Shown in pieces: positions 1 through 28,080 of a DNA stretch of 36,085 nt. Under the pieces are notes generated by a model. That model had not been told where the DNA came from. It made no database searches and saw only the letters and a list, made by a program, of their open reading frames with translations. The number at the start of each line of letters is the position of its first letter. Position 1 is the first letter of the stretch. The DNA is taken from the NCBI GenBank assembly GCA_013331945.1, contig DUFK01000027.1:19687-55771 (forward strand). Direction: 5' to 3'. Source of the DNA: Nanobdellota archaeon. Lineage in GTDB: Archaea; Nanobdellota; Nanobdellia; Pacearchaeales; UBA12030. The position numbers and the translations under genes are program-made.

Positions 1-206
1 AATTCCTGCCTGTGCCAGAATTGGAATACAGAATCTGTGACTGGGCCCCTTCCTTGTTGTATGTTCTTTGCTAATTCATAATATGTGGGCTCATCTCCAC
101 CAACCCACGTAAACTTATCTACAGAAGAAATTTGTGAGAAAGTGTAAAGGCGGAGCGCTATACCAAGCACTAAAATCAGTATAAATAAAATAAATTTATA
201 TCTCAT
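1..206 (-). CDS. ArnT/PMT-like (GT-C fold) membrane glycosyltransferase, N-terminal fragment; the gene runs off the left edge of the window
   Basis: Not in the ORF track because there is no stop inside the window. The reverse complement of 1..206 translates from an ATG (204..206) as MRYKFILFILILVLGIALRLYTFSQISSVDKFTWVGGDEPTYYELAKNIQQGRGPVTDSVFQFWHRQE. That is one N-terminal TM helix followed by a loop with an acidic GGDE motif, the same layout as the N-terminus of the 23066..24592 protein (AVRLYFF...VWWDESEH). It starts 9 nt after the stop of the upstream Dpm1-like GT2. Confidence 0.6.
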   Translation of the reverse strand, partial: MRYKFILFILILVLGIALRLYTFSQISSVDKFTWVGGDEPTYYELAKNIQQGRGPVTDSVFQFWHRQE

Positions 207-215
207 CTTCAATTA

Positions 216-953
216 TTAGGGGGATTTAGGAGGAACAGAATATTTAGACTTAATCTCTTTATTAAATTTATACAATGCTATCAGCTCTTTTATAACTACA
301 GAAGGTATCTTTCTTATAGGGAACACATTTGATTCAGCACCCTCTCTTTTCCAGTGAGTTACTGGCACTTCCACAATTTTGAATCCCTTGTAGTATGACC
401 TAACAACAAACTCAGAAGTAAAATAGCTAAGTACTCCAACTTCCTTCACAACCTCTCTAACAACCTCCTTCTTGATTAGCTTAAACCCAGTGTCCATATC
501 CTTAAGCGGTACTTTTAAAAAAACCCTCAATAAAAAATTAAACCCCTTGGAAAGAACAATCCTATAGAACGGATCCTTTCTCTTCACCTTTAAGCCTAAA
601 ATCACATCATAATCTTTGGTGTAAGGTAATAGTCTCCATATATTCTTAGGATCGAATTGGTAATCAGAGTCTACTAGCAAGATCCACTCATATTTTGGAT
701 ACCTTAAGGCTTCCTTATTTGCCCTTAAGACTCCTTTCCTCTCTTTATGCATGTAAGCTCGTATCTTCAGTTCTTTTTTTAATCTTTTAAGTATCTCCTT
801 TGTTCCATCAGTACTGCCGTCTTCTGCGACAATAATCTCAAAATCAATCTTGCCTTTAAGTTCATTATAGAAAGATCTTATACTCTTTTCTATGATATAG
901 GCTTCGTTGTAAACAGGCATAACAACAGATAGACTAGGCAGCCTTTTTTTCAT
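216..953 (-). CDS. GT2 glycosyltransferase, Dpm1-like (polyprenyl/dolichyl-phosphate sugar synthase type, no C-terminal TM)
   Basis: Motifs LSVVMPVYNE, VAEDGSTDGT and LLVDSDYQFDP (DxD). I prefer the ATG at 953 (MKKRLPSLSVV...) because AAGGGGAG lies 4-5 nt upstream of it. The ORF-track start at 998 would overlap fcl by 65 nt. Confidence 0.85.
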   Translation of the reverse strand: MKKRLPSLSVVMPVYNEAYIIEKSIRSFYNELKGKIDFEIIVAEDGSTDGTKEILKRLKKELKIRAYMHKERKGVLRANKEALRYPKYEWILLVDSDYQFDPKNIWRLLPYTKDYDVILGLKVKRKDPFYRIVLSKGFNFLLRVFLKVPLKDMDTGFKLIKKEVVREVVKEVGVLSYFTSEFVVRSYYKGFKIVEVPVTHWKREGAESNVFPIRKIPSVVIKELIALYKFNKEIKSKYSVPPKSP

Positions 954-1920
954 TTTCTCCCCTTGGTTTTTGTACTTCTTGATTCTCAAACCATTCATAT
1001 GTTCGCTTTATTCCCTCTTCTAAATCAGTTCCTGCCTTCCACCCGAGGCTATGTATCTTACTAACATCGAGTAACTTCCGGCTCATACCATCTGGTTTTG
1101 TAGTATCAAATTCTATTCCCCCCTTGAATCCAATAGAATTCCTGATAATTTCTGCAATCTCTCTTATTGTCCTATCTACCCCTGTCCCAATATTTATAAT
1201 TTCTGGAGAATTATAGTTCTTCATTAAAAAGATGCAAGCCTCGGCTAGGTCTTCTACATATAAGGCCTCTCTTCTCGGGCTACCCGTACCCCAGATCACC
1301 ACCTCTTCCTTATCAGAAATTTTTGCCTTGTGGAATTTCAGAATAAGCGATGGTACCAAGTGGGAATTCAGTGGGTCGTACTTATCATTAATCCCATATG
1401 AGTTTGCTGCAATCGCAGAGATAAAATTAGTACCATACTGCTTATTGTAGGATTGACACATTTCTACTCCAGCTATCTTTGCGATGGCGAATGGTTGGTT
1501 TGTTGGCTCTAAATTACCTGATAATAGATAGGACTCCTTTATCGGCTGGCTGCAGTCTCTCGGATAGATGCAATTGCTAGCTAAGAATAGCAATTTCTTA
1601 ACCCCAAACTTCCATGCAGAATGAATTAAATTATTCTGGATTTGCAGGTTCTTGTAAATGAACTCAGCTCTGTAAGTATTATTTGCATGTATGCCTCCAG
1701 ATTTAGCGGCCGCATCAAAAACATATTCTGGTCTCTCTTCTCGGAAGAACTCTTCGGTGACTCTTTGGTCTTCGAGGTTTAGTTCTGAAGAGGCCTTAAC
1801 AATAATGTTTTTGTACCCCTCTTTTTCAAGCCTCCGTTTAATTGCAGACCCAACCATCCCTGAATGTCCAGCAATGTATACTTTTGATTCCTCATTCATG
1901 TTTCTTCTCATCGATGTCAT
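934..1920 (-). CDS. fcl: GDP-L-fucose synthase (GDP-4-keto-6-deoxymannose 3,5-epimerase/4-reductase) family; variant with Phe at the catalytic Tyr position
   Basis: Colinear with E. coli Fcl/WcaG as I recall it: VYIAGHSGMVGSAI, LFLASNCIYP, EPTNQPFAIAKIAG, NSHLVPSLI, WGTGSPRRE, NIGTGVD, KPDGMSRKLLD. The start could also be the ATG at 1911 or 1899. Confidence 0.85.
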   Translation of the reverse strand: MTSMRRNMNEESKVYIAGHSGMVGSAIKRRLEKEGYKNIIVKASSELNLEDQRVTEEFFREERPEYVFDAAAKSGGIHANNTYRAEFIYKNLQIQNNLIHSAWKFGVKKLLFLASNCIYPRDCSQPIKESYLLSGNLEPTNQPFAIAKIAGVEMCQSYNKQYGTNFISAIAANSYGINDKYDPLNSHLVPSLILKFHKAKISDKEEVVIWGTGSPRREALYVEDLAEACIFLMKNYNSPEIINIGTGVDRTIREIAEIIRNSIGFKGGIEFDTTKPDGMSRKLLDVSKIHSLGWKAGTDLEEGIKRTYEWFENQEVQKPRGENEKKAA

Positions 1921-2947
1921 GCATTTTAATGAATTCCCTATTCCATTCTATAGTCCTTTTTACCCCTTCTTTAATCTCTACAAGATTATCCAATTTAAAC
2001 TCATTTTTTATCTTACTTATATCTAGCTTAACCCTGTCTGGTGCGCCTGCCATGAATGTCTCGCTCGTATCTCTCGGCAGAGAGTATTCTGAATTTGTAA
2101 GCTCGCATACGGTCTTAGCCAGGTCCTTGATGGATGTTAACTCCTCTCCTCCAACATTGTACACAAAAGATTCCCCGTGCAGCAGAATATTCAGTAGCAT
2201 GATAACGCAGTCTCCCACATATAGCCATGCCCTCTCCTGTCTACCACTATCCAGCAGGTCTATATATCCTTTTATCATGGCTTTATTAAGGAAATTTCCC
2301 AGGACTCTCTTATCATAGACAGATATTCCTGGGCCGTATACAGAAGAACATCTAGCAATTTTTACATCTACCCCAGATTCTTTAAAAACAGAGCAAATAG
2401 TCTCCCCTAATCTTTTTGATTCAGTATAAGGAGCTCTTTCATATATTGGGGAGCAGTTACCATTATAGCTTTCTGGAGTAGGAATTTTTTCTGCCTGACC
2501 ATAAATCTCTGATGAACTTATAAAAAGGAAAGAAGAACTGTTTTTCTTACACGTGTCCAGGAGTTTTTCAGTTACCACTGTATTTAACTTTATTGTTTCC
2601 ATTTTATTCTCCAAAAATTTCACTGGTTGAGCATAAGTAGCAGCATGGATTACATAATCGAACTTTTCATCGAATCCAGAATCTTCCACCAAATTTTTTT
2701 GATAGAAAGTACTGTTCTCATCTTCTTTTATTTCGGACAAAGTTTTATTAGGGTCATTTTTGCTTACTCCAATAACCTTTATATTCAAGTTGTGTTTCTT
2801 ATTTGCTAAATACAAGGCCATAACGATATACGTTCCTATCAAGCCATTTGATCCGGTGACTAAAATACTCTTATCCTTAAGTTTTCCAAGTTCTACCCTC
2901 TCCAATACTCTCAACAAGTCTTCTTCTATAACCTTATTCATTTGCAA
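1892..2947 (-). CDS. Extended-SDR NDP-sugar epimerase/dehydratase (UDP-glucuronate decarboxylase-like)
   Basis: Rossmann motif VTGSNGLIGTY, ISSSEIYG, and a YxxxK motif in APYTESKRLGE. It overlaps both neighbouring genes, which suggests translational coupling. Confidence 0.8.
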   Translation of the reverse strand: MQMNKVIEEDLLRVLERVELGKLKDKSILVTGSNGLIGTYIVMALYLANKKHNLNIKVIGVSKNDPNKTLSEIKEDENSTFYQKNLVEDSGFDEKFDYVIHAATYAQPVKFLENKMETIKLNTVVTEKLLDTCKKNSSSFLFISSSEIYGQAEKIPTPESYNGNCSPIYERAPYTESKRLGETICSVFKESGVDVKIARCSSVYGPGISVYDKRVLGNFLNKAMIKGYIDLLDSGRQERAWLYVGDCVIMLLNILLHGESFVYNVGGEELTSIKDLAKTVCELTNSEYSLPRDTSETFMAGAPDRVKLDISKIKNEFKLDNLVEIKEGVKRTIEWNREFIKMHDIDEKKHE

Positions 2948-3851
2948 CTATACTCCTTATTTTATTGGCAATTTCCTCTTCATTTAATCCAGATGATCTA
3001 CACAGGTCATCATATTTCCCATAGTCTGTAATGAACTTATCTCCCACACCCATCCTATACATCTCAATATTCCCAAGTTCACCCAACACCATTGAAACTT
3101 CGTCACCTAGTCCACCCCTTATACTGGCCTCCTCTACAGTTAATACTTTCCCGGTTTTTCGTGCACTTTCTATAATCAGCTCTTTATCCATTGGTTTAAT
3201 CGTGTGGATGTAGATAATCTCAGCATCAATGCCATCTTTTTTCAGAGTTGCACTTGCTTTTGCGGCGTTATCTACCTGGGGGCCAGAAACAACTATTGTA
3301 ATGTCAATCCCGTCCTTGATAACTACTCCCCTGCCAAATTTTATAATGCTTTCATCTATCTGCTGCGTATGTTTCCTTTCAGGAAGGCGGAAATAAGTCA
3401 GTTTCCCGTTATCAAAACTCTGTTTGAATAACACCTCAAGCTCTTTAGGGCTTGAGGGGTACACTACCTCTGTATTAGGCAAACTTCTTAAAATAGCTAT
3501 ATCTGAGTATGTGTGATGCGTGCACCCTAATCCAGAATAGTCAAATGCAGACCCCACGCTAACTATATTCCCCCCCACACCCTGGTAACAGAAATCATCT
3601 TTAATCTGCTCGAAGCATCTTTCTGTCACAAATGGCGCAATACTGTGGACTACCGGTATCAATCCAGCCAAGGCCATTCCAGATGCCATACTCATCATTG
3701 ATTGCTCGCATATGCCGATGTTATAGAACCTTTCAGGATAATTTTTCCTGAACTCCCTAAGACCAAAAACACTTATATCTCCAGCTAGTATCACCAACCT
3801 CTCTTCTTTCCCGCCCATCTCGAGCATTAGCCTAACGAATTCTTTTCTCAT
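2934..3851 (-). CDS. Transketolase, C-terminal (pyrimidine-binding plus C-terminal domain) subunit
   Basis: FYNIGICEQSMMSMASGMALAGLIPVVHSIAPF is the Transket_pyr signature. About 305 aa, typical of split archaeal/bacterial transketolase B subunits. ATGA overlap with the N-terminal subunit at 3848..3851. Confidence 0.9.
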   Translation of the reverse strand: MRKEFVRLMLEMGGKEERLVILAGDISVFGLREFRKNYPERFYNIGICEQSMMSMASGMALAGLIPVVHSIAPFVTERCFEQIKDDFCYQGVGGNIVSVGSAFDYSGLGCTHHTYSDIAILRSLPNTEVVYPSSPKELEVLFKQSFDNGKLTYFRLPERKHTQQIDESIIKFGRGVVIKDGIDITIVVSGPQVDNAAKASATLKKDGIDAEIIYIHTIKPMDKELIIESARKTGKVLTVEEASIRGGLGDEVSMVLGELGNIEMYRMGVGDKFITDYGKYDDLCRSSGLNEEEIANKIRSIVANE

Positions 3852-4624
3852 TTCAGCTCTTCAAGAATTTTTTTATAAGTCTCTTCATCTGGACTCTTAT
3901 GATGCCATTCCGGATTGTTTTCCATGATGCCAATACCTTTTCCTTTAACAGTATTCGCAATTATGACCTTTGGTTTTGCAGTCTTAATACCCATCATGGC
4001 CTTTACCTTTCTCTCGATTTCCTCATGATTATGGCCATCCATTTCTTCAGCTTCCCACCCGAAACTAGTCCAAATTTTCTTATAGTCATAGTCTAGGGAA
4101 TATGCTTGAGACTTGTTTTTATCAACAATCACTAGAAGATTATCTAATAACAAATTTCTTGCGACCTGAGCGCTCTCCCATATAGTCCCCTCGTTACTCT
4201 CCCCATCTCCTATAATCACAAATACCTTATTCGGCTTTTTTAATATCTTCATTGCTGTCGCGATACCCAAACCTATTGGCAACCCATGCCCCAATGAACC
4301 GGTTGAGGCCTCTACACCAGGAACCTTATTCCTATCTGGATGACCTCCAAACATACTATCAAATTTGCAAAAGGTCTTCAACTCCTCTTTATTAAAGAAT
4401 CCGACATCCGCTAATACTGCATACAGTGCGGGACAGCCATGCCCTTTACTTAGAATAAAATAATCTCTTGCATCCCAGCTCAGGTTCTTAGGGTCAAATC
4501 TTAATATCTTCTTGTATAGAATATAGATTAAATCAATTATGCCCAAGGCACTTGGAAGATGTCCCTCTGATGAGTAGTAGACCATATCTACTATGTCCTT
4601 TCTTAAAGAATTTATCTTATCCAT
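3848..4624 (-). CDS. Transketolase, N-terminal (thiamine-diphosphate-binding) subunit
   Basis: SKGHGCPALYAVLADVGF, GSLGHGLPIGLGIA, and the TPP-binding motif IIGDGESNEGTIWESAQVA. 258 aa. Confidence 0.9.
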   Translation of the reverse strand: MDKINSLRKDIVDMVYYSSEGHLPSALGIIDLIYILYKKILRFDPKNLSWDARDYFILSKGHGCPALYAVLADVGFFNKEELKTFCKFDSMFGGHPDRNKVPGVEASTGSLGHGLPIGLGIATAMKILKKPNKVFVIIGDGESNEGTIWESAQVARNLLLDNLLVIVDKNKSQAYSLDYDYKKIWTSFGWEAEEMDGHNHEEIERKVKAMMGIKTAKPKVIIANTVKGKGIGIMENNPEWHHKSPDEETYKKILEELK

Positions 4625-4781
4625 ATCTCTACCTTTCTAAAGATTAACTTTTTTAGGTCAAAAGTAGCATTTACCTTAATAAAATGCTCTCGATAGGCTG
4701 CCCCCTAGTTACTCTAATAAGATATAGCGATTAAATTTAAAAGGCTTTCTAATTTTTATACTCCTGCTTGGGGCGATTAAA
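4625..4781. promoter_or_regulatory. Divergent intergenic/promoter region between the tkt operon (-) and the membrane-GT operon (+)
   Basis: 157-bp AT-rich gap between divergent start codons. TTTTTATA (4753..4760) is centred about 26 nt before the ATG at 4782, which fits a leaderless + transcript. On the minus strand, GAAAGCCTTTTAAATTT (4733..4749) matches the BRE/TATA-like motif seen upstream of aglB. Confidence 0.4.
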
Positions 4782-6731
4782 ATGTACTGGCCAATAACCT
4801 TACTTTTAGGATTAATTATCATCTTTGTAATCGGTTATTTGCTATTCCTCAAATTCAGACTAAAATCTGACGCATTCCTATTCTCAGTAGGGCTGGGAAC
4901 AATGTTTATAGTTTTCCTGCTTTTCTCCATAAACCAGTACTTTAGATTACCTATTAGCCCCACCAATACCTGGATAGCAATTATATCCTCACTACTATTC
5001 CTATTATTGGTAAATTATAACCTGCTTATTAGAGAAGTTCCAAGAATTAAGTTTAAATTTAAGCCAAAATTTAGCGCCTTTTCTATATTGATACTGGCAG
5101 TCTTCATTATCGCTTTTTACAAATCAGTTTTCTTCCCGATAACTGCAGATGATGCAGTTTTAATGTATGCATTTATCTCTGAAAGATCTTGGGATGATGG
5201 ATTCCCTCCGTCAGCAACCTCTTCTTATATGGAGATATCTTATGCCTACCCGAACACAAATTTCGTATTATTTTTTTATAACTACTTTTTTGGTTTAAAT
5301 TTTGGATTCGATGACATATTCATTAGAGTTCTAATTCCATTGTTTTCTTTATTAAATCTCTTGCTTTTCTATAGACTATCGTTCGCCCTATTTAAAAACA
5401 AAGAGATAGCGCAGCTCACCGCAGTGATTTTTGCAAGCAGTACGATCTTCGCTTCGGGTATAATTCAGGAGTATACGACTATGTATGAGGTTTTCTTCTC
5501 TTTTATGGCCGTTTACGCCTTTGTTCTTTATAACGAAGATAAGGATTATAGGTATCTTGTACTGACGGGGGTATTCCTCGCTTCAATTTTAATGATTAAA
5601 TATACTCTAATCCCATTTGTACTCTTCTTCTTGGTATCTATGCTGGTCTTCAATAGAAGTATAAAGACTATAGTGAAACTCGCAATTGTAATTATCCCCG
5701 TGTCATTGGTGTTCTATCTAAGAAACATAATATCTTATAAAAATCCAGTATACCCCTTCTTTTTCGGCGGGGAGAATTTTAATGCTAAACTATTTGAGAT
5801 ACAGAATACCTTTGCAAATGTCCCCAGTTATACAGTAGAACAGCTATTTGTAGCTCTAATCCCAATTAGTTTATTTATATTCATATTTTTCATCTGCTTC
5901 CTGCTAGATTACATCAAGTCTGAAAAGAAAAATTCTACCTACAACATCTTAATTCTAACTGCAGTCTTATACCTGCTTTTTTGGTCTTGGACATCCGCAT
6001 TCATAAAAGAGACGCAAGGCATGCGTCACCTAATAGAATCTTTCGGGATAATCTCCCTATTCTCGGCCGCGTTCTTATACAAAAAAATCCATGATAGGTC
6101 TAAGATTATATTATACTCATTAATACCTGCAATATCTGCTTTTTCGATTTATTGGTTGTACTTCGTTTTTGTGCCTGATCCCTATTTCGAATATTCTAAA
6201 AACCTGCTTACCTTGATGTTCTTACAGCCGGTACTCCTAACTTGCTCTCTTCTCTTGCTAAGGTCAAAAATAAATTCTAAGAAGATATTGGCTTTGGTAA
6301 TTATTTCTCTTATGATTGTACCAATAGGTTTTGCCGCATTCGCCAAGAGAACAGCTCTTTGGGAGTACCCATCTGACGAAGAGGTAATTGAAAGGTATTA
6401 TCCAGACCACTTCGAAGTTTTTCAGTACATAAACAAGAATTTGCCAGCAGACGCAAAAATTCTGAGCCTTTATAATCAGAGGTATTACATCAAAAGAGAG
6501 ATATTGCCGGCGGATTCGCCAAGAGTATCCTTCCTTTACGAGAATACCTCCATTGATAGTGCTATCAATAAACTAGAATCCATGGGCGTCAATTATATCC
6601 TAGTTTCGGAGATGGAGAAAAATCTGCCATTCTGGCAGATTTCTGTTGTACATCGTGCACATGAAGAAAGGAATTTAAAATTAACTGTTCTTTACAAAAA
6701 TGAGGAGGTTACGCTTTACGAGATAAGTTAG
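4782..6731 (+). CDS. Polytopic membrane protein with C-terminal soluble domain; probable GT-C-fold (ArnT/PMT-like) glycosyltransferase
   Basis: 649 aa. Hydrophobic segments run through about residue 520. An acidic loop motif FPITADDAVLMY follows the first few TM helices, and there is a roughly 125-aa hydrophilic C-terminus (WEYPSDEEVIERYYPDHF...). The architecture resembles the 23066..24592 protein. The functional call is weaker than the CDS call. Confidence 0.5.
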   Translation: MYWPITLLLGLIIIFVIGYLLFLKFRLKSDAFLFSVGLGTMFIVFLLFSINQYFRLPISPTNTWIAIISSLLFLLLVNYNLLIREVPRIKFKFKPKFSAFSILILAVFIIAFYKSVFFPITADDAVLMYAFISERSWDDGFPPSATSSYMEISYAYPNTNFVLFFYNYFFGLNFGFDDIFIRVLIPLFSLLNLLLFYRLSFALFKNKEIAQLTAVIFASSTIFASGIIQEYTTMYEVFFSFMAVYAFVLYNEDKDYRYLVLTGVFLASILMIKYTLIPFVLFFLVSMLVFNRSIKTIVKLAIVIIPVSLVFYLRNIISYKNPVYPFFFGGENFNAKLFEIQNTFANVPSYTVEQLFVALIPISLFIFIFFICFLLDYIKSEKKNSTYNILILTAVLYLLFWSWTSAFIKETQGMRHLIESFGIISLFSAAFLYKKIHDRSKIILYSLIPAISAFSIYWLYFVFVPDPYFEYSKNLLTLMFLQPVLLTCSLLLLRSKINSKKILALVIISLMIVPIGFAAFAKRTALWEYPSDEEVIERYYPDHFEVFQYINKNLPADAKILSLYNQRYYIKREILPADSPRVSFLYENTSIDSAINKLESMGVNYILVSEMEKNLPFWQISVVHRAHEERNLKLTVLYKNEEVTLYEIS

Positions 6732-6751
6732 GCTAAGAGTGATAATTTAAA

Positions 6752-7702
6752 ATGGAAAAAAAGTTGCTGGGGATTTTACAATGCCCTTACTGCGGCAAGG
6801 AATTTAAGCTTTCGGCTAGGGCTAAAAATAGCTCCATGGTCAGCGAGGGTAAATTAATTTGCGGGTGTTCCGAATACAATGTAAAAAACGGCCTTCCTAT
6901 TTTACTAAATCATGAGCCCAAACACAAGGGAGAATGGGATGATCAATGGAGCCTGTACTCGAACAAAATTAGGTTGTGGGATACAGACGTTAACGAGTGG
7001 GAAGAAAATATGCTAAAACAAAGCCTAATGATCAAAAACACTTCTGAGCTTAAAGGGAAGTGGATTTTGGATGCCGGATGTGGTCCGGGAGTGATATCCT
7101 CGAAACTATCTAAATACTGCACTGGTGGCGGGCTGGTTGGAGTGGATATGTCCTCCGCAGTAAAATTTGCGAACTCTCATTTTAGTTCAAGTCTCCGTAT
7201 TGCAAGAATGAATGAAAATCTTCACTTTGTACAGGCAGATATACAGCATTTGCCTTTCAAAAATGGTGTTTTTGATATGGTATACTCTGCCGGAGTTCTT
7301 CATCATATTGATGATACTGAAATGGCTTTCAAAAGCCTATTAAGGTGCTTGAAGAAAAGAGGCAAAATCAGCATTTGGGTGTATAATGAAGATACATCTA
7401 TCAAAGTAAAGATTCTTGAAGTCCACTTTAGGAAATTTTTAACATTTTTCCCGCGAAAGTTTAGGAAGCAAGTCTTGCTTTCTTTATTACCTCTTTTTTT
7501 AATAAAGCAAAGTTTATTCGGAAAAGGAAGCAAGCAAGATGCAAAAGAAAAATTACTCCATATTTATGATGCATTGTACCACAAGGTGGCCAAGCGTTAT
7601 TTCTCCAAAGAAATGGTTGATCTATTCAAGCGCAATGGCCTTAAGCATGTAGTTATTGGAAGAGAAGACGAGAGCGGATTTTCAGTTACTGGGATTAAAT
7701 AG
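6752..7702 (+). CDS. Trm112-like zinc-ribbon domain fused to a class I SAM-dependent methyltransferase
   Basis: N-terminal CPYCGKEF...LICGCSEYNVKNGLPILL (four-Cys ribbon, Trm112p/UPF0434-like). Methyltransferase motif I ILDAGCGPGVIS, plus VYSAGVLHHI. A hydrophobic patch LLSLLPLFLIKQSLF lies near the C-terminus. Confidence 0.75.
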   Translation: MEKKLLGILQCPYCGKEFKLSARAKNSSMVSEGKLICGCSEYNVKNGLPILLNHEPKHKGEWDDQWSLYSNKIRLWDTDVNEWEENMLKQSLMIKNTSELKGKWILDAGCGPGVISSKLSKYCTGGGLVGVDMSSAVKFANSHFSSSLRIARMNENLHFVQADIQHLPFKNGVFDMVYSAGVLHHIDDTEMAFKSLLRCLKKRGKISIWVYNEDTSIKVKILEVHFRKFLTFFPRKFRKQVLLSLLPLFLIKQSLFGKGSKQDAKEKLLHIYDALYHKVAKRYFSKEMVDLFKRNGLKHVVIGREDESGFSVTGIK

Positions 7703-7715
7703 CGTAAAGATGGTA

Positions 7716-9620
7716 TCATAGCTCTACCTTTTCCGGCCTTTCTCCATCGATAAACATCCTGTGCCATATCTCAAAGGTTAGGAGCAGGATTATTTTGTTT
7801 ATCTTCTCCACATCGTCCTTGCTGTTTTGCATCAATCTCCCGATGTAATCCTTATTGAAGAAGCCTTGCCTCACAACTTCTGACTCTGCAAGGAACACGT
7901 GCGCTGCATCATAAAGATAGGTTCCATACCATTCAGAGAGGGGAGCTGTGAAGCCGTATTTCCTCCTTTTAATAGTCTCTTTTGGAAGGATTCTTGCCAT
8001 CGCCCTCTTAAGGATATACTTGCTCTCCTTCCCCCTCAGCTTAAGATGTGGCGGCAGGCGCTGCGCGAAATCCAGCATCGCGTTATCTAAAAATGGAACT
8101 CTGCTTTCAAGGCTGTTCGCCATGGTAAGCTTATCATCGTTCAGCAAGTATTGGTCTGGAAGTGTATACTTGAGGTCAATCAATGTAAGGTTATTCAGGA
8201 GATTACCCTTCTTTTTTAAGATATCTGCAGTTATATTATCTGATCCTATCTTTGCTCTCTTCCAAAAAAGATTCCTCTTCTCATTCTCATCAAAGTCCAG
8301 GTAGACAAGCTTGTTGTACGCTTCCGCCTCATTTTTCAAAGAAGGTAGGAATTCTTTGGCGAACCTGGCATATCTTCTTATCCTATTTCCAGGAACGCAT
8401 TTCCCAAGAATTGAAGCAGTAGCAGATGTCAGTTTTGACTCAAAGATGTAAGGGAATCTATTGTAATACTTTTTCCCCCTGTATATCATGGAATGCTGCC
8501 TATACCCGGCAAAAAGCTCGTCACCGGCATTTCCTGTAGTGACCACCTTTACACTATTTCGTGCTGCTTTGGCCATCTCATAAAGCGGAATTAGGGTTAT
8601 GTTCGGCATCGGCTCATCCATGCTCCACAGTATTCTTGGGAAATTTCTTATGGATTTTTCATCAACGACTATTTCTTGATGGTCTGTTCTAAACCTTTCT
8701 GCAACATTCCTTGCATACCCGAGCTCACTCTGAACTTCTCTTGAGCCAAAACCAATTGAAAATGTCCTTATTCTGCCAGCATCGCCCTCTTCTTTTCGGA
8801 TTATGCTTATCATAGCAAGAATGCTGCTGCTGTCTATTCCACCACTAAGAAAATGGCCGACAGGAACATCTGCAATCAAGTGTCTTTTTACAGATTCCTT
8901 TAGGGTCTTGAGCAGAAGTTTGGAGTAGTGCTCTTCGTTTCCATCCTCTGGTCTGAAATTAAAGTCCCAATACCGCTTTATCTTGATTTTTCCATTTTCG
9001 TACACAAGAAGATGTCCAGGCATCAGTTTTTTCACATCTTTGAGCATTGTAAGTGGTCCAGGAGTGTAGGTGTAGGTTAGGTAATTGCTAAGTGCTCTCC
9101 TATCTACTTCCCTCTTGATTCCAAATTCAAGCAGTGCTTTTATTTCAGAGGCAAATGCCAGCATTTTTCCGTCATAGGTGTAATAAAGTGGTTTTATCCC
9201 AATTCTATCCCTCGCAAGGAAGAGCTGTTTCTTTCCCTTGCGCGCATCCCATATGGCAAATGCGAACATTCCATTCAGCTTCTGCACACATTCTTCTCCG
9301 TATTCTTCGTATGCGTGCACAATCGTCTCTGTATCTGTATCGCTCTTGAATTTGTGGCCTCTGGCTTCCAGCTCATGGCACAGGGGCTGGAAGTTATAGA
9401 TCTCTCCATTATAGGTTATCCACACATCGCCATCTTCATTGCTCATCGGCTGATGGCCCTTCTTGCTCAAATCGATAATAGCGAGCCTTCTGTTGCCCAG
9501 CTCTATATTCTTGTCAGAAAAATAGCCGAAATCATCAGGGCCCCTGTGCACTATCGCAGAGGTCATCCTACGAATCCTTGCTTTATCATTCAATCCTGCG
9601 AAACCTGTTATTCCACACAT
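7716..9620 (-). CDS. asnB: Asparagine synthase (glutamine-hydrolysing) family amidotransferase; probably a sugar carboxylate amidotransferase in this context
   Basis: N-terminal MCGITG (Cys2 Ntn-glutaminase nucleophile) and the PP-loop motif FLSGGIDSSSI. 634 aa. Confidence 0.85.
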   Translation of the reverse strand: MCGITGFAGLNDKARIRRMTSAIVHRGPDDFGYFSDKNIELGNRRLAIIDLSKKGHQPMSNEDGDVWITYNGEIYNFQPLCHELEARGHKFKSDTDTETIVHAYEEYGEECVQKLNGMFAFAIWDARKGKKQLFLARDRIGIKPLYYTYDGKMLAFASEIKALLEFGIKREVDRRALSNYLTYTYTPGPLTMLKDVKKLMPGHLLVYENGKIKIKRYWDFNFRPEDGNEEHYSKLLLKTLKESVKRHLIADVPVGHFLSGGIDSSSILAMISIIRKEEGDAGRIRTFSIGFGSREVQSELGYARNVAERFRTDHQEIVVDEKSIRNFPRILWSMDEPMPNITLIPLYEMAKAARNSVKVVTTGNAGDELFAGYRQHSMIYRGKKYYNRFPYIFESKLTSATASILGKCVPGNRIRRYARFAKEFLPSLKNEAEAYNKLVYLDFDENEKRNLFWKRAKIGSDNITADILKKKGNLLNNLTLIDLKYTLPDQYLLNDDKLTMANSLESRVPFLDNAMLDFAQRLPPHLKLRGKESKYILKRAMARILPKETIKRRKYGFTAPLSEWYGTYLYDAAHVFLAESEVVRQGFFNKDYIGRLMQNSKDDVEKINKIILLLTFEIWHRMFIDGERPEKVEL

Positions 9621-9625
9621 CTCTC

Positions 9626-10207
9626 TTAGCAGTCCTTTACCGCAACAAATATCAAGTTAGAACTTAAATTCTTCGGCATCCACATAAAGTCAGCACCCAA
9701 AACCTTCTTTACTTTGAAGCCATTTTCTGGAAGAAGGCCAACTATCTGCCTTCTTGAGAATATCTTGTGCTCTCCAGCACTCCTTTTTGGCTCTTTTTTG
9801 ATTGCGCCGATTCTCCTTAAAGAAGAATCTCTGTTGACTGTTGTTAGAATAAGTGTTCCCCTTTTTTTAATTATTCTCCAGATCTCTCTGACCGATGCTT
9901 CTGGCTTTTGCAGATACTGCATGACTCCAGAGAAAACAACCATATCAAATTGCTCTTTCTTGAAAGGTAGTTTCTTATCACAATCGGCCAGAACCTTCTT
10001 TCTGCCTTCCACTCTTGCAAGAACATCTCTGCTCCTGTCTGCACTGATAATATCCGCATCAAAATAATCAAAACTCCCCCTATCTCCACATCCAAGGTCA
10101 AGAATCTTCGCCTCTTTTCCATTCATTCTCCGCACGACCTTCCCAACTATCCTTCTAGTATCTTCTGTTATCCTATTCTCGAGCATTCGGGAAATTCTTT
10201 CTTTCAT
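9626..10207 (-). CDS. Class I SAM-dependent methyltransferase
   Basis: Motif I ILDLGCGDRG, motif post-II MVVFSGVMQYL, motif III KKRGTLILTT. ATGA overlap with the upstream deacetylase gene. Confidence 0.8.
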   Translation of the reverse strand: MKERISRMLENRITEDTRRIVGKVVRRMNGKEAKILDLGCGDRGSFDYFDADIISADRSRDVLARVEGRKKVLADCDKKLPFKKEQFDMVVFSGVMQYLQKPEASVREIWRIIKKRGTLILTTVNRDSSLRRIGAIKKEPKRSAGEHKIFSRRQIVGLLPENGFKVKKVLGADFMWMPKNLSSNLIFVAVKDC

Positions 10208-11115
10208 CTCAAAAGTCCACTCATGTTTACTATCTCTATCTTGTCCTCTTTTTGCAGCCGCAACGCATAATCTGTTATGACCCTAAGATTGGAGATGTTC
10301 CTGTGTGTGAAGTCATGCGTGTTCAGGCAATAAACCTCTCCATTCTGGAGCTTGACGGCCAGCGACATCTCTCTTAGTATTCTCCTTATCAGGCTCTTGG
10401 AAGAGTTACCTTCAAAGTAATGTGATACCTGCACTGCTTTCAGGCCATACTTCATGAATGGCTTTCTTATTGCAACTTCATGTCTCTGGTTCAGGCCATT
10501 CTCTACGCCAGCAAATCTCACTATCTTGATTCCGTTCTTCTTCAGCACGCTGTATACCTTTTCCGGCTCTTTTACATCCTCAATCATGTTAAAAGGAGCA
10601 CCAAAAGAAACAGGCTTTATTCCAAGAGATTTAGCAGATCTTACAGCTGATTCTATAATGGAATTGACAGATTCCTTGCTTTCAAGAGTTAATGCCTCGT
10701 GTGAAAATGCGTGAAGGCCAAGATCAAAATAACTTTCGCGCATTTCTCTTTCAATAAAATCCCCCATGTAGAAGCTTGGTTTCGTTGTAAAATCTAATTT
10801 TGGATCCCAGTAATCCCATCTTTTTTTCATCATCATGTTAAGCCATTCCCCCTCTGGCTCCTCAGAGAAATGCGGAAAGCCTCTGCACTCTTTCAAGTAC
10901 AGATGGCCGACTATAGTGAATGTAGCCGGAAATCTTTGGCTCTTGAGTAGCTTTACTATCCTACTGACGCCTTCCCTCCCCCGGGAAAATTTTCCCGGAA
11001 GAAGCTTGTTAATCCTCCATTTTATCAACTCATTTCCTCCGAAATGAGGACTAGGTATATAGCGCCAAAAATCTGTTTCTGTATCTATAACTAGACAAAA
11101 CTTTACCTTAGCCAT
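10204..11115 (-). CDS. Polysaccharide deacetylase-like (divergent CE4/NodB-type) protein
   Basis: LVIDTETD (Asp-rich motif 1 position), TFTIVGHL, LHAFSHEA (HxxxH-type metal motif). It is divergent, so the family assignment is moderate. Confidence 0.55.
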   Translation of the reverse strand: MAKVKFCLVIDTETDFWRYIPSPHFGGNELIKWRINKLLPGKFSRGREGVSRIVKLLKSQRFPATFTIVGHLYLKECRGFPHFSEEPEGEWLNMMMKKRWDYWDPKLDFTTKPSFYMGDFIEREMRESYFDLGLHAFSHEALTLESKESVNSIIESAVRSAKSLGIKPVSFGAPFNMIEDVKEPEKVYSVLKKNGIKIVRFAGVENGLNQRHEVAIRKPFMKYGLKAVQVSHYFEGNSSKSLIRRILREMSLAVKLQNGEVYCLNTHDFTHRNISNLRVITDYALRLQKEDKIEIVNMSGLLR

Positions 11116-11130
11116 ATTGAAAGATGAATA

Positions 11131-11145
11131 GAAACCTTTTTATTT
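11131..11145 (+). promoter_or_regulatory. BRE/TATA-like box for the 11168 operon; sits mid-way in a 52-bp divergent intergenic region
   Basis: GAAACCTTTTTATTT. The T/A core is centred about 27 nt upstream of the ATG at 11168, which implies a leaderless mRNA. The same A/T core lies about 26 nt from the divergent ATG at 11115. Confidence 0.45.
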
Positions 11146-11167
11146 CTTATCGTATCTACTAAGGGTT

Positions 11168-12142
11168 ATGAGCTCTAATTACTGGTCTGGAAAGAAAGTT
11201 CTCGTTACGGGAGCAGACGGCTTTATGGGGAGTCACCTGACAGAGCGCCTGCTATCCTTTGGAGCAGATGTATCTATTTTTCTGAGGGGGAGCTCTACAG
11301 AAGGGACTAGGAACTTCTCAGTTAAGAATCTTAAATCCAGCATTAGCAAAATTTCTAATATCCTTGAGGGCGACATATCCTCTGTGGACTCTATAAAGCT
11401 AATCAGGAATAATAATCCCGAAATAATCTTTCATCTCGCAGCTGAAGCATACGTGCCGAAATCATTTAAACAGCCCATATTAGTCAAAGAAGTCAATCTA
11501 GATGGCACCTTAAATGTCCTTGAGGCTGCCATGAAATTGAGCTCAATTCAGGGGGTGGTCTGCACGTCATCTAGTGAGATATATGGGACATCAAACATTG
11601 CTATTAATGAGGATCACCCGTTAAACCCAACTTCCCCTTATGGAGCGTCAAAGGCAGCCGCGGATAGGTTCTGCTTTTCATACTGGAATACATACGGCCT
11701 GCCAATTGCGATAATAAGGCCATTTAATACCTATGGCCCAAGGCATACGTATGATGTTATACCTAAATTTATTACCAGAGCTTTGAAAAACGAACCACTG
11801 ACAGTACACGGTGACGGATCACAAACACGTGATTTCACATACGTTGACGATATGATCGAAGCGTTTTTACTAATGGGCTCGCGTAAGGAAGCGGTAGGCC
11901 AGGCAGTTAATTTCGGGACAGGAAAAGACGTCTCTATTAGGGAGATTGCAGAAAAGATAGTAAGGTACAGTAATTCAAGTTCAAAAATAGAATACATTGA
12001 GAAAAGGACCTCGGAAGTTCAGAAACTTTTGTGTGATCCTAGCAAAGCAAAGCAACTTTTTTCTTGGGAAGCGAAAATTTCAATTGATGACGGGCTGAGG
12101 AAGAACATACAATGGGAAATAGGCGATATCTCGAAGAGTTAA
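11168..12142 (+). CDS. Extended-SDR NDP-sugar dehydratase/epimerase family protein
   Basis: VLVTGADGFMGSHL, TSSSEIYG, SPYGASKAAAD (YxxxK), GDGSQTRDFTYVDD. Confidence 0.8.
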   Translation: MSSNYWSGKKVLVTGADGFMGSHLTERLLSFGADVSIFLRGSSTEGTRNFSVKNLKSSISKISNILEGDISSVDSIKLIRNNNPEIIFHLAAEAYVPKSFKQPILVKEVNLDGTLNVLEAAMKLSSIQGVVCTSSSEIYGTSNIAINEDHPLNPTSPYGASKAAADRFCFSYWNTYGLPIAIIRPFNTYGPRHTYDVIPKFITRALKNEPLTVHGDGSQTRDFTYVDDMIEAFLLMGSRKEAVGQAVNFGTGKDVSIREIAEKIVRYSNSSSKIEYIEKRTSEVQKLLCDPSKAKQLFSWEAKISIDDGLRKNIQWEIGDISKS

Positions 12143-12933
12143 ATAAAGATAGCACTAGGGAAATTTTTGAATCGTTCAAAAAATTACCTGCAAATCAACT
12201 AAAGTTAATCTATAACACTGCTGATTGGGCCTACATAAACCACTCTGAATTTAAAGCGGTTTATGATTTGCTAAGGCCTTATTTCAATAAAAAATTAAGA
12301 CTATTGGATGTCGGATGCGGTGATGGAAGGTTCCTCATACCTTTAGAGGGGAAGTTTCGCCTATATGGCCTTGATTTCTCAAAAAGTTTTCTAAGGGAAG
12401 TTAAGAAACACTGTAAATCTTGCAGAACTATATTTGGTCACGCAGAAAAATTGCCGTTCAAATCAGATTATTTTGATGTAGTGCTCTCTGTAAGGCTGAT
12501 TCAGCATCTATCAAAAAAGCAGCAGCAGAATGCAATTGATGAGATGTATAGGGTCGTCAAACCTGGAGGTAAAGTTATAGTCTTAAACTACAATAGCATG
12601 AGCGCGCTGAACATTTACAAAAAGATTTGTCAGAGCAAGACTCCTAAATTCTGGCCATTCATTAAGTGGAGATGGGTGATAGATGAGTATAACTCTCCTT
12701 CAGAACTGAAAGCTATGTTTAAAAGGGCTGGATTTAATAGAATCAGGACAACGGGATGCACATTGGGGGAGCCAGACGTATTAAGACTTACTAAAATCTC
12801 CTCCTTCCTAGAGAAAATCAGCAGGAAAATACCACTAAAATACTATGGGTTGTGTGAAAGGCTCGAAAGCTACGTAAAATCAACACCCCTAGCAAATCTA
12901 ATGAACAGGGTAGTAATAATTGGAGGGAAATAA
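12112..12933 (+). CDS. Class I SAM-dependent methyltransferase
   Basis: LLDVGCGDGRF (motif I), FDVVLSVRLIQHL, VKPGGKVIVL. Confidence 0.8.
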   Translation: MGNRRYLEELNKDSTREIFESFKKLPANQLKLIYNTADWAYINHSEFKAVYDLLRPYFNKKLRLLDVGCGDGRFLIPLEGKFRLYGLDFSKSFLREVKKHCKSCRTIFGHAEKLPFKSDYFDVVLSVRLIQHLSKKQQQNAIDEMYRVVKPGGKVIVLNYNSMSALNIYKKICQSKTPKFWPFIKWRWVIDEYNSPSELKAMFKRAGFNRIRTTGCTLGEPDVLRLTKISSFLEKISRKIPLKYYGLCERLESYVKSTPLANLMNRVVIIGGK

Positions 12934-12934
12934 G

Positions 12935-14107
12935 ATGGAAATCGAAAATAGGATAAATCTTGCCGTAAATTGGTTACTATCCTCTGGAATCCAGTCGGAA
13001 GATGGCGGATTTAACTCTTGGTATGATGTAGAGAGCAGATCTTATAAGTACAAATACTCAGAGATAACTGGCTATGGTCTTTCCACACTGGTTTCCCTAA
13101 TTGACATATCGGCAGACAGAAATAAACTGCTAGAACGAGCAAATCTAGCTGCTGAATGGCTGATTAATAACGCCACGCACGTGTGCAATGGTTTTAAGAC
13201 CCGCTCTTATTACTCTAGAGCAGATAGCAATAATTTTTACTCCTTCGATACCGGGAAGATATTTTCCTTTGATACTGGCATGGTGATCAAGGGTCTACTC
13301 AATCTTTACAAGATCAACAAAAACGAGGCGCTTTTAGATGCTTCTAAAAAAGCGGCGGAATTTTTGATTAATAAAATGAGCAAACCCGATGGCCTTTTCT
13401 ATGCTACCTATGACCCCGAACTAGGAAAAAATACAGACTCAGAAGAAAAGTGGTCCTCTCAGAGCGGTAGCTATCACGCCAAGATAGCCATACCCTTACT
13501 TAATCTTTATAGTATAACCGACAACAAATCTTTTTTAGATAGAGCTTTGTCTATATGCGATAGTTCTCTTGAGTTACAGAAGAGCGATGGAAGATTTATC
13601 TCATTCTCGAGCACTGGAGATACGCACCTTCACCCGCACATCTACACTACTGAGGGTCTGGTGTATCTAGCGTTAAACCTAAAGGATGAAAAACGAAGGT
13701 CGATTTACTTGGATTCTACTAGAAAGGCTATTGAATGGGTGTTGGACAACCAAAAACCAAATGGTGGACTTCCGCAGGCATTTTATAGCGGACAGAACAG
13801 ATTTAATATGCACGAAAGAGTGGATATAACTGCCCAAGCATTGAGGATTAGCTCTATACTTCTCTCTTTAGGTGAACTAGACAACAGATACCATGCAAAG
13901 ATCGGAAGATTATTTGAAAGACTAAAAGAATTTCAAAGAAGCATTGAGGATAAGGACCATGGCGGGTTTAATTTTGGCTATGACCATGATGGATTCCCGC
14001 TTGTCAATCATGTTAACTCATGGTGCACTATGTTCTCTCTTCAGGCGATTATGTACTATAAGCAGCTAATCTCTGGCCAAAATATAAAAGTTGACTTTTT
14101 GATATAG
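12935..14107 (+). CDS. alpha/alpha-toroid repeat protein of unknown function (prenyltransferase/terpene-cyclase-like or AGE/glucuronyl-C5-epimerase-like superfamily)
   Basis: Repeated helix-hairpin units carrying Gly/aromatic motifs: SEDGGFNSW, SEITGYGLSTL, KPDGLFYATY, KSDGRFISF, KPNGGLPQAF, KDHGGFNFGY. I prefer the ATG at 12935 because GGAGGG lies 7 nt upstream of it; the ORF-track start at 12920 is a TTG. Confidence 0.45.
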   Translation: MEIENRINLAVNWLLSSGIQSEDGGFNSWYDVESRSYKYKYSEITGYGLSTLVSLIDISADRNKLLERANLAAEWLINNATHVCNGFKTRSYYSRADSNNFYSFDTGKIFSFDTGMVIKGLLNLYKINKNEALLDASKKAAEFLINKMSKPDGLFYATYDPELGKNTDSEEKWSSQSGSYHAKIAIPLLNLYSITDNKSFLDRALSICDSSLELQKSDGRFISFSSTGDTHLHPHIYTTEGLVYLALNLKDEKRRSIYLDSTRKAIEWVLDNQKPNGGLPQAFYSGQNRFNMHERVDITAQALRISSILLSLGELDNRYHAKIGRLFERLKEFQRSIEDKDHGGFNFGYDHDGFPLVNHVNSWCTMFSLQAIMYYKQLISGQNIKVDFLI

Positions 14108-14129
14108 CCCCCATAATCTTTCGGATAAA

Positions 14130-26205: not shown

Positions 26206-27004
26206 ACGCCCTCCTATAGCCCTTTGTTTTTTTAGATAAAGTTAGGATTATTTCAGGTAAATTTTTTATCACTTCCAGCATCATTCGTGAGCTGCTCATC
26301 TCGCCCAATTTTTTTCTTGTGCCTCTTTTAAGGATTTGCCTGAGCATGTACCCGAGATCGTAATCTTCCATATGGAGTATGGGATTTGGAGTGAAAGCTA
26401 CCTTATATCCTGCCTTGCATATTCTTTGCTTCAGGTCAAAATCCTCTCCTGCGGGCTTGTCAAAATACTCATCAAAACCCTTGAACTTGTGGAATATATC
26501 TGCTTTGTAGGACATATTGTTTGTGAATCCGACAGGTACTTCTTCTCTTCCTATTATTGTCTTGTTTCTCATCTTATGGAGGCTTTTATTCTTTATAATT
26601 TCCAATGCTGAAAAGATATTGTTTTTCGATGGCTGTAATGGCCCGCCGATTCCGACAATCTCTGGAAATCTTCTATAGGTGCTGATTATGTTGCCAATCC
26701 ATTTTCTTGGTGCGACACAATCTGCATCGGTGAACGCAAATATCACTCCCCGCGCATTCCTAGCCCCTAGATTCCTTGCTGCCGCAGGACCTTTCCTGCT
26801 CTGCTTCAGGATTTTAACGCTCTTTTTCCACTTTCTGCTTCTTATGGCCTCTAGGGTGCCGTCTGTTGAGCCATCGTCTACTACTACTATTTCGAGTTTT
26901 CCAACATAATTCTGGGATTCTACACTCTTTATACAATTGATTAAAGAGCGTTTACTATTGTATGTAGCAATTATTACACTTACGAATGGGAGTTTGCCTA
27001 TCAT
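26177..27004 (-). CDS. GT2 glycosyltransferase
   Basis: VSVIIATYNSKRSL, VVVDDGSTDGT, FAFTDADCV (DxD). Confidence 0.85.
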   Translation of the reverse strand: MIGKLPFVSVIIATYNSKRSLINCIKSVESQNYVGKLEIVVVDDGSTDGTLEAIRSRKWKKSVKILKQSRKGPAAARNLGARNARGVIFAFTDADCVAPRKWIGNIISTYRRFPEIVGIGGPLQPSKNNIFSALEIIKNKSLHKMRNKTIIGREEVPVGFTNNMSYKADIFHKFKGFDEYFDKPAGEDFDLKQRICKAGYKVAFTPNPILHMEDYDLGYMLRQILKRGTRKKLGEMSSSRMMLEVIKNLPEIILTLSKKTKGYRRAYEDENRTDK

Positions 27005-28050: not shown

Positions 28051-28080
28051 CTTACCCTTGCCAATCATTAGTGCAGAAAA

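Follow-up and report, generated by a model that had tools for sequence, protein, structure and literature searches.

Split transketolases of surface-glycan loci as candidate carboligases for nucleotide-activated keto sugars

Introduction

Among the enzymes dependent on thiamine diphosphate (ThDP) in sugar tailoring, split-gene transketolases have been proposed to transfer a hydroxyacetyl unit to a keto sugar as miharamycin and amipurimycin are made (PMC12247030, section 2.3), and all 13 predicted keto-sugar split transketolases are from Streptomycetes (PMC12247030). Of a different kind are YerE and ErwE, whose acceptor on the way to yersiniose and erwiniose is CDP-4-keto-3,6-dideoxy-D-glucose (PMC12247030), and the pairs AviB1/AviB2, AlmDI/DII and KbDH-alpha/beta, which together with the UXS-like AviE2 and EvdS6 belong to the pathways of the eurekanate, aldgarose and kibdelomycin sugars (PMC12247030, PMC10338323). 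Here we describe a split transketolase pair, TktN and TktC, encoded in a 36,085-nucleotide stretch of DNA of a Nanobdellota archaeon (contig DUFK01000027.1, positions 19,687 to 55,771; hereinafter the window). An initial annotation of the window had placed this pair at the head of a six-gene glycan operon and offered two hypotheses for it: supply of sedoheptulose-7-phosphate for heptoses activated as nucleoside diphosphate (NDP) sugars, or transfer of a two-carbon (C2) unit onto an NDP-ketosugar.

Our analysis upholds the split architecture, the six-gene operon and the labels given to the partner enzymes, finds the second hypothesis the best supported and speaks against the first. TktN/TktC is very probably a dedicated glycan-pathway enzyme and not a transketolase of the pentose phosphate pathway. 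To the more specific reading, namely transfer of a C2 unit onto an NDP-4-keto sugar (keto-sugar branching) followed by delivery through a lipid-phosphate carrier, we assign a probability of roughly 0.5. We put forward more tentatively the broad proposal that a large unrecognized clade of transketolase-derived ThDP carboligases puts hydroxyacetyl branches on NDP-keto sugars for surface glycans, and that in this archaeon an undescribed C-branched sugar might thereby pass via dolichyl phosphate to an AglB-type glycan. A full-text literature search on transketolases in glycan contexts did not bring up any account of the clade from primary glycan loci and yielded only the Streptomyces precedent (PMC12247030).

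Results

A split transketolase with an altered acceptor site

In this variant split transketolase the ThDP half, with the PP domain (PF00456, 4.7e-41), is encoded by the tktN-like gene (3848..4624 (-), 258 amino acids (aa)), and the half comprising the Pyr and C-terminal domains (PF02779, 2.3e-22; PF02780, 3.5e-25), in which the acceptor/phosphate pocket is altered, by the tktC-like gene (2934..3851 (-), 305 aa). Both open reading frames (ORFs; 4624..3848 and 3851..2934) lie on the minus strand where the initial annotation had placed them, and the VIIGDGESNEGTIW and YNIGICEQSMMSMASG motifs that it quoted are found in the respective translations. At the junction (gag ctg aaA TGA gaa aag), the ATGA at 3848-3851 serves as both the tktN stop and the tktC start. 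The top PDB match of TktN is the N chain of the Carboxydothermus hydrogenoformans split transketolase (6yak, 213 bits; human TKT, 129 bits), and TktC matches 6yaj (174 bits; human TKT, 101 bits). TktN keeps the catalytic and donor histidines (His22, His62, His95 and His241, corresponding to E. coli His26, His66, His100 and His261) and the ThDP/metal motif G139-D140-G141 with Asn170, which is conserved in variant and canonical groups alike, while TktC keeps Arg2 (E. coli Arg358), Glu49 (the cofactor-activating Glu411, which like that motif is common to both groups) and His112 (His473).

In the yeast and E. coli transketolases, Arg358, Ser385, His461 and Arg520 bind the substrate phosphate and Asp469 binds the C2 hydroxyl of the acceptor. 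Of the canonical phosphate-ligand set the Arg358 equivalent alone is retained in TktC: Phe29 stands in place of Ser385 and Gly100 in place of His461, and the acceptor ligand Asp469 is replaced by Leu108. The Arg520 column holds Glu158 in the clade alignment and Arg159 in a pairwise alignment; as Arg159 comes directly after Glu158, the loss of this ligand is clear for the clade and ambiguous for the window protein.

We compared these columns between the TktC proteins of 98 loci with the window's motif and those of 33 canonical split-transketolase loci recovered in the same scans. The Arg358 column is Arg in 96 of the 98 and in all 33 canonical proteins. At Ser385 the clade has Phe (58), Gly (25) or Tyr (9), as against Ser in 31 of 33; at His461 it has Gly throughout (98/98) versus His (33/33); at Asp469, Leu (95/98) versus Asp (33/33); and at Arg520 it has Glu (45), Gly (17), Ala (14) or Lys (7) where every canonical protein has Arg. 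The clade has invariants of its own in the C half (His69, Asp104, Tyr105 and His113, all present in the window protein) and extra clade-specific histidines in the N half (His113 and His242). The two kinds can be told apart by a simple sequence test on the C half, which looks for Gly at the His461 position, Leu at the Asp469 position and the motifs D-Y and H-H. Scored against NCBIfam, the pair misses the transketolase equivalog cutoff (best model NF004559: 247.7 for the N half and 158 for the C half, versus 488). In a neighbor-joining tree the variant and canonical split transketolases were separate in 30 of 30 bootstraps, so that in the phylogeny check proposed by the initial annotation the clade is not nested within the canonical enzymes.

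By these residues TktN/TktC is a predicted transketolase in fold and not a canonical transketolase in its pocket: the donor side appears intact, whereas the acceptor/phosphate side appears rebuilt as a mostly uncharged pocket. Substitutions at S385, D469 and R520 of the E. coli enzyme shift its preference to non-phosphorylated, non-hydroxylated acceptors, and the natural changes at the Ser385, Asp469 and Arg520 sites parallel those engineered variants.

A widespread clade linked to nucleotide-sugar genes

A profile search with the clade TktC recovered at least 487 loci among GTDB species representatives that encode relatives with the clade's signature peptides. Members are found in DPANN and methanogen-related archaea, in Patescibacteria and in over 15 bacterial phyla; the archaeal ones include Woesearchaeota and Methanomicrobia, and the bacterial ones Patescibacteria, Omnitrophota, Planctomycetota, Nitrospirota, Chlamydiota and many Proteobacteria. 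Two of the carriers are isolates, Pseudoalteromonas sp. XMcav2-N and Alteromonas lipolytica JW12. The closest match of the window's TktN among the GTDB representatives has 57% identity.

Neighbors were counted within ±8-10 kb of the 98 variant and 33 canonical loci. An extended short-chain dehydrogenase/reductase (SDR) of the NDP-sugar type is found near 67 of the variant loci and only 1 of the canonical ones. The same skew is seen for a gene like that of the pyruvate dehydrogenase E1-beta subunit (PDH-E1-beta; 40/98 versus 0/33), a FabG-like classical SDR (51/98 versus 1/33), a protein combining Methyltransf_13 and Methyltransf_23, the architecture of NDP-sugar C-methyltransferases (42/98 versus 0/33), and an orthologue of SDR1, the gene that follows tktC in the window (19/98 versus 0/33). 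SDR1 stands immediately 3′ of tktC in 18 of the 98 clade loci and in none of the 33 canonical loci. The tkt-SDR synteny is conserved across phyla, and these counts together with the tree contradict the refuting case set out in the initial annotation, namely nesting within housekeeping archaeal transketolases and no conserved linkage to glycan genes.

These associations fall into distinct contexts. In that of the window (type A), tktN-tktC-SDR1 is often followed by an Fcl-like gene and transferases; the arrangement tktN-tktC-SDR1(-FclL) is seen, besides the window's archaeal lineage, in Patescibacteria, Omnitrophota, Verrucomicrobiota, Gammaproteobacteria, Actinomycetota, Aminicenantes and Elusimicrobia. 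Neither of the two isolates carries the window's cassette; in both, the pair occurs in a context with no SDR1. The type-A TktC sequences also cluster, with 16 of 19 having another type-A protein as nearest neighbor. Glycan genes (GT2, GT10 and GT11 glycosyltransferases (GTs), Wzm/Wzt, Gmd and methyltransferases) surround these cassettes, and in a Pfam census of 147 neighbors of SDR1-positive cassettes the 25 commonest families all have glycan functions (epimerases, dehydratases, GT2, GT10, methyltransferases, B12-radical SAM, Wzy and NTP transferases among them), with no pentose-phosphate or heptose-pathway family among those 25.

In the type-B context the order is RmlB-like dehydratase, SDR, E1-alpha, E1-beta, C-methyltransferase-like, FabG-like, (TylF-like methyltransferase), tktN, tktC, methyltransferase and radical SAM; E1-alpha/beta-like genes co-occur with the transketolase clade in 33-40 of the 98 loci. 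In its fuller form, a GmhA-like SIS gene may stand at the start, and radical SAM/SPASM and then B12-radical SAM genes at the end. This cluster, which we found in eight bacterial and archaeal loci and about 40 others, appears to be undescribed, and it would place two different ThDP enzyme pairs within one sugar pathway. A third context, seen in three Saccharibacteria-type metagenome-assembled genomes (MAGs), has tktN-tktC and, after them, a FabG-like classical SDR and a B12-binding radical SAM protein, beside Wzm/Wzt transporter genes. A single glycan locus of a Bacteroidota MAG carries two tktN-like genes, one tktC-like gene and genes for three Fcl-like SDRs, one of which lacks the Cys109 and Lys140 equivalents.

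The distribution bears directly on the view that this is simply the sole housekeeping transketolase of the organism, lying by accident within a glycan island. That view draws some plausibility from the small size of DPANN genomes and from central enzymes often being single-copy in them; yet the translational coupling of tkt and SDR genes has been conserved in many phyla, proteobacterial and other bacterial lineages among them, the substrate pocket is altered, and only 1 of the 33 canonical split-transketolase loci has an NDP-sugar SDR nearby. We regard it as extremely improbable.

A more serious alternative has the enzyme at work ahead of nucleotide activation, or on a small molecule other than a sugar. 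It would join the C2 donor to a non-canonical aldehyde or sugar phosphate, and the resulting unusual ketose or acyloin would afterwards be reduced, activated or attached as a substituent. Consistent with this, the C half scores nearly as well against DXS as against transketolase models (142 versus 158 bits), the equivalent of Arg358 is kept, the transketolase pair is flanked by FabG-like classical SDRs in 51 of the 98 loci, and GmhA-like SIS genes edge several type-B loci. On the other hand, the window-type cassette does not include its own kinase, phosphatase, isomerase or nucleotidyltransferase, of the four phosphate ligands three are gone, and the direct partners in the window are extended SDRs of the nucleotide-sugar type. 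On balance we hold this alternative to be unlikely, though worth keeping in view.

The partner enzymes SDR1 and FclL

SDR1 (1892..2947 (-), 349-351 aa), the conserved partner of the transketolase pair, is an extended SDR of the UXS/ArnA type whose closest PDB match is human UDP-glucuronate decarboxylase (126 bits). It keeps SSSEIYG and YTESK (family motifs SSSE(I/V)Y and YxxxK), and its remaining motifs are UXS-like. Throughout the SDR1 family the Asp that ends beta-2 is absent and Gly takes its place (VIGVSK). In UXS, RmlB and GalE this Asp binds the NAD ribose. Its absence is compatible with an exchangeable NADPH and hence with a reductase role, in which case SDR1 might be the NADPH reductase for the new side chain.

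FclL (934..1920 (-), 321-328 aa) resembles GDP-L-fucose synthase (E. coli enzyme 1bsv, 348 bits) and falls short of the cutoff of NCBIfam NF047922 (438 versus 500). It has the equivalents of Ser107, Cys109, Lys140 and His179, with Phe144 in place of the catalytic Tyr136; the full GDP-L-fucose synthase triad Ser107-Tyr136-Lys140 is consequently lacking, while the epimerization residues Cys109 and His179 are present. The change from Tyr to Phe is shared by the relative L085 and by L088/L089, and the more distant bacterial cassettes have a different Fcl-like subfamily in which the Tyr is kept. As the epimerization residues are kept and the reductase Tyr is lost, FclL is suggested to act as an epimerase that preserves a 4-keto group.

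One aquifer contig, and 11 similar places, show an apparent frame-breaking deletion of 473 bp in FclL (window positions 1329-1801) and are otherwise identical. FclL is intact in two other contigs (L002 and L003), and the deletion looks like a strain-level polymorphism with the rest of the operon intact. We considered whether the window allele, with its Tyr-to-Phe change and this deletion variant, is a decaying pseudogene, and rejected this in view of the conservation of the Phe in three lineages and a ratio of nonsynonymous to synonymous substitution rates (dN/dS) of 0.07 relative to L085.

The nature of these SDRs also bears on where the C2 unit might be attached. In place of branching at a ring ketone, it could be added to the aldehyde of an activated sugar (an NDP-hexodialdose or pentodialdose made by an SDR), giving a heptose or octose skeleton that an SDR then reduces. 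Aldehydes are the natural acceptors of transketolases, the residue and synteny evidence would apply equally to such chain extension, and SDR partners are always present. Against it, we identified no enzyme that is known to produce an aldehyde of an NDP-sugar, the similarities of SDR1 and FclL are to enzymes that oxidize C4 and handle 4-keto sugars, and the analogues (YerE, the E1-alpha/beta types and the proposed miharamycin transketolase) all branch at a ring ketone. We judge it rather improbable.

The remainder of the operon

Gene boundaries downstream of tktC were taken from gene calls on contigs identical to the window, namely L002 and L003 from Rifle aquifer metagenomes, which match window positions 1-14624 (14.6 kb) and 1-11477 (11.5 kb) at 100% identity. 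By these calls there are overlaps of 8 nt between tktC and SDR1 (2941..1892), of 8 nt between SDR1 and the Fcl-like gene (1899..934), and of 20 nt between the latter and the next gene, a GT2 (953..216). The ThDP enzyme is accordingly encoded inside a nucleotide-sugar tailoring operon, with translational coupling to a UXS-like and an Fcl-like SDR. The GT2 (216..998 (-), 245-260 aa; PF00535, 7e-27) is similar to polyprenyl-phosphate sugar synthases (Dpm1, ArnC, AglJ), with weak NCBIfam matches to ArnC, AglJ, dolichyl-phosphate hexose transferase and PpgS. Beginning at position 170, the sixth gene exits through the window start, so that its first 56 codons lie inside (1..170 (-), identified by translation); on L002 and L003 it is complete and codes for a 509-aa GT-C of the PMT_2 type with a PF13231 domain. 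A GT2 followed by a PMT_2 GT-C is, by analogy, what may be called the grammar of ArnC/ArnT or AglD/AglS late decoration. ORFs, Pfam domains and the junction all agree with the initial annotation's picture of a six-gene minus-strand glycan operon headed by the ATGA-overlapping transketolase halves, and domain, NCBIfam and PDB matches bear out its labels for the partners (UXS-like, Fcl-like, Dpm1/ArnC-like and ArnT-like).

Relative to L085, a relative with 82% identity, all six genes are under strong purifying selection, with a dN/dS of 0.05-0.08 where dS can be estimated; for tktC and the GT2 the synonymous sites are saturated, and the ratio of nonsynonymous to synonymous differences per site (pN/pS) is about 0.16. 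Upstream of tktN is an A+T-rich intergenic region (4625..4781) that contains tataaaaatt and ttaaatttaa, as well as aggtagagat upstream of an ATG, and is presumed from its sequence to be the promoter region. It separates the operon from a divergent second PMT_2 GT-C (4782..6731 (+), 649 aa; PF13231), whose position and orientation beside the operon are conserved in L085.

An adjacent CDP-sugar operon

Beyond the window start, on L003 (12863-17630) and L085 (15990-20053), a convergent operon begins 26 bp past the GT-C gene. It codes for RfbH, the CDP-6-deoxy-D-xylo-4-hexulose 3-dehydrase (516 bits, cutoff 423), then an extended SDR, a CDP-glucose 4,6-dehydratase-like protein (RfbG-like; 226 bits, under the cutoff of 278), a 404-aa protein that matches neither Pfam nor NCBIfam families, and, about 5 kb beyond the window start, the glucose-1-phosphate cytidylyltransferase RfbF (338 bits, cutoff 300). 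No E3 reductase was recognized among these five genes. RfbF, the RfbG-like protein and RfbH would make CDP-4-keto-3,6-dideoxy-D-glucose, and the locus as a whole has a gene set for making NDP-4-keto sugars in these three proteins and the UXS-like SDR1 of the transketolase operon. The adjacency is suggestive of an acceptor source; equally, an ordinary 3,6-dideoxyhexose could be the product of the RfbFGH-SDR operon by itself. We ruled the three genes out as partners of the cassette in general, since they lie beside it only in the window's lineage and, in part (RfbF and RfbG), at one other locus. The operon is, in its own right, a CDP-3,6-dideoxyhexose pathway in a DPANN archaeon.

The wider glycan island

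The window as a whole forms one large glycan island, with several GT4 and GT2 genes, the second GT-C, a WecB-like epimerase, dehydratase/aminotransferase pairs, an AsnB-like amidotransferase, several methyltransferases, an initiating transferase of the GT4 family (MraY/WecA-like) and a geranylgeranyl-reductase-like flavoprotein. It also codes for an AglB/STT3 oligosaccharyltransferase (32683-35529 (-), 948 aa) with the motif HWWDYGYW, whose closest relatives are in Nanoarchaeota, Woesearchaeota and Pacearchaeota MAGs (56-35% identity), which marks the host as a DPANN archaeon; in this protein the first membrane segments are preceded by a long N-terminal low-complexity His/Ser-rich extension (about 90 aa). 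A methyltransferase (6752-7702 (+)) has an archaeal Trm112-like zinc-ribbon module (NF038101, residues 1-54) fused N-terminally to its catalytic domain. A 395-aa protein with weak matches to squalene-hopene-cyclase-C and pectate-lyase-like (alpha/alpha toroid) families (12920-14107 (+)) is encoded between a methyltransferase and a GT4 and is conserved in L085.

The three GT9 heptosyltransferase-like genes of the initial annotation are present at 18824-19891, 21087-23039 and 27001-28068; the second of these (plus strand) codes for a 650-aa fusion of GT9 (heptosyltransferase-like) and GT2 domains. Domain and family scans found no gmhA, sugar kinase or nucleotidyltransferase gene inside the window; here too we agree with the initial annotation, which had reported no gmhA, heptose kinase or nucleotidyltransferase gene, though the cytidylyltransferase described above lies about 5 kb outside. 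These results weigh on its first hypothesis, an ordinary transketolase that supplies sedoheptulose-7-phosphate for an NDP-heptose to feed the GT9 genes. Those three genes, and the GmhA-like genes in some distant type-B loci of the clade, are in its favor; however, across the clade other residues stand at the Ser385, His461, Arg520 and Asp469 positions, so that three of the four phosphate ligands and the C2-hydroxyl ligand are lost, the clade stands apart from the canonical split transketolases, and no gmhA, heptose kinase, phosphatase or heptose nucleotidyltransferase gene occurs in the window, the 6 kb beyond it or the window-type cassettes. The related heptose rationale for the Gmd/Fcl-type enzymes and the GT9 genes likewise finds no linked GmhA, heptose kinase, phosphatase or nucleotidyltransferase, and FclL is devoid of its catalytic Tyr. 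We consider sedoheptulose-7-phosphate supply very unlikely.

Discussion

A proposed keto-sugar branching pathway

The gene architecture, the residue pattern, the separation of the clade and the synteny are directly supported by our analysis; from these we infer which donor and acceptor are used, how the steps are ordered and what is made. We propose that tktN and tktC encode a two-subunit, transketolase-derived ThDP enzyme of nucleotide-sugar tailoring. The intact cofactor and donor machinery would first form a ThDP-bound C2 carbanion, most likely dihydroxyethyl-ThDP from hydroxypyruvate or a ketose, the dihydroxyethyl unit being probable because the histidines that bind the donor C1 hydroxyl are kept. 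The remodeled pocket would then present the carbonyl of an NDP-4-keto sugar, and addition of the C2 unit would give a C-branched or, less likely, a chain-extended sugar. SDR1 may either make the 4-keto acceptor (a UDP-4-keto-pentose, as with ArnA and AviE2) or reduce the side-chain ketone (as does YerF), and the Tyr-less FclL may act as an epimerase with retention of the 4-keto group. Finally, the GT2 would load the sugar on polyprenyl or dolichyl phosphate, and the GT-C would transfer it to the surface glycan outside the membrane.

We favor C2 transfer onto an NDP-ketosugar because of the changes at the acceptor/phosphate site, the tkt-SDR synteny across phyla and the co-occurrence of enzyme classes known to decorate NDP-4-keto sugars (E1-alpha/beta types and C-methyltransferase-like proteins); these same lines (pocket changes, conserved synteny and keto-sugar enzymes as neighbors) leave it the better supported of the two hypotheses of the initial annotation. 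Several points weigh against it. Transketolases normally take aldehydes, not ketones, as acceptors, and the function of the clade is read here from sequence and gene context. The Arg358 equivalent is retained clade-wide and the window protein has Arg159 after Glu158; an anionic group may therefore still bind. In 13 type-B loci a GmhA-like SIS gene is present, usually at their upstream edge, and in such loci the substrate might be a sugar phosphate. A motif scan for the active site of UDP-glucose dehydrogenase (Ugd-type), whose presence would have spoken for a UDP-GlcA route, found none in the ORFs near any SDR1-positive cassette. The confinement of RfbF/G/H essentially to the window's lineage also counts here, as does the range of possible acceptor nucleotides, which could be CDP (RfbFGH), UDP (SDR1) or GDP (the Fcl-like enzyme, and GT10/GT11 in bacterial cassettes). 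Lastly, carboligation by the Streptomyces split transketolases is itself a proposal that has not been shown in vitro (PMC12247030).

Implications for annotation and surface chemistry

Genome pipelines label the genes of this clade plainly as transketolase, and in reduced genomes, such as those of DPANN archaea and Patescibacteria, the label feeds reconstructions of metabolism as a sign of the pentose phosphate pathway. If these enzymes are sugar-tailoring carboligases, such reconstructions would be wrong wherever a clade member is the only "tkt". The clade would then be a third widespread family of C-branched-sugar enzymes besides the YerE and E1-alpha/beta types, undescribed branched sugars would be predicted on the surfaces of many uncultured lineages, and a natural ketone-accepting transketolase scaffold, currently an engineering goal in biocatalysis (PMC12247030), would be at hand.

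Comparison with known systems

In architecture the window pair is like the split transketolase of C. hydrogenoformans (6YAK/6YAJ) and human TKT (3MOS/4KXU), with which it shares the two-ORF N/C arrangement, short loops, the ThDP/metal motif, the cofactor Glu and the catalytic histidines; unlike them, its clade has the substrate ligands replaced, invariants of its own and a glycan-operon context. The miharamycin and amipurimycin transketolases belong to the same enzyme family and share the split architecture and a proposed C2 transfer within a sugar-tailoring cluster. Compared by description and not by sequence, they differ in residing in peptidyl-nucleoside clusters of Streptomyces, whereas the window clade is found in surface-glycan loci of archaea, Patescibacteria and many bacterial phyla.

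In the YerE/YerF and ErwE systems a ThDP carboligase works with a ketoreductase on an NDP-4-keto sugar destined for a surface glycan, a logic that the proposed pathway would match, and the acceptor-making RfbF, RfbG-like protein and RfbH adjoin the window operon. YerE is, however, a single polypeptide of the acetohydroxyacid synthase (AHAS)/decarboxylase superfamily with pyruvate as donor, in contrast to the two-subunit enzyme of the transketolase family, whose C2 donor is probably hydroxylated. In the alpha-KADH2 systems of the AviB1/B2 type, too, a UXS-like SDR accompanies a ThDP enzyme of two subunits, theirs making a C2 branch at C4 of an NDP-4-keto sugar (PMC12247030, PMC10338323); they differ in belonging to the 2-oxoacid dehydrogenase E1 family, in using pyruvate as donor and in their setting in actinomycete antibiotic clusters. 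Finally, the operon as a whole resembles the Arn pathway (ArnA-ArnB-ArnC-ArnT) and the archaeal AglD/AglS systems in combining a UXS/ArnA-like SDR, a modifier of C4, a lipid-loading GT2 and a GT-C that acts outside the membrane; where the Arn pathway has an aminotransferase at C4, we propose that in the window operon C4 is modified by the ThDP enzyme.

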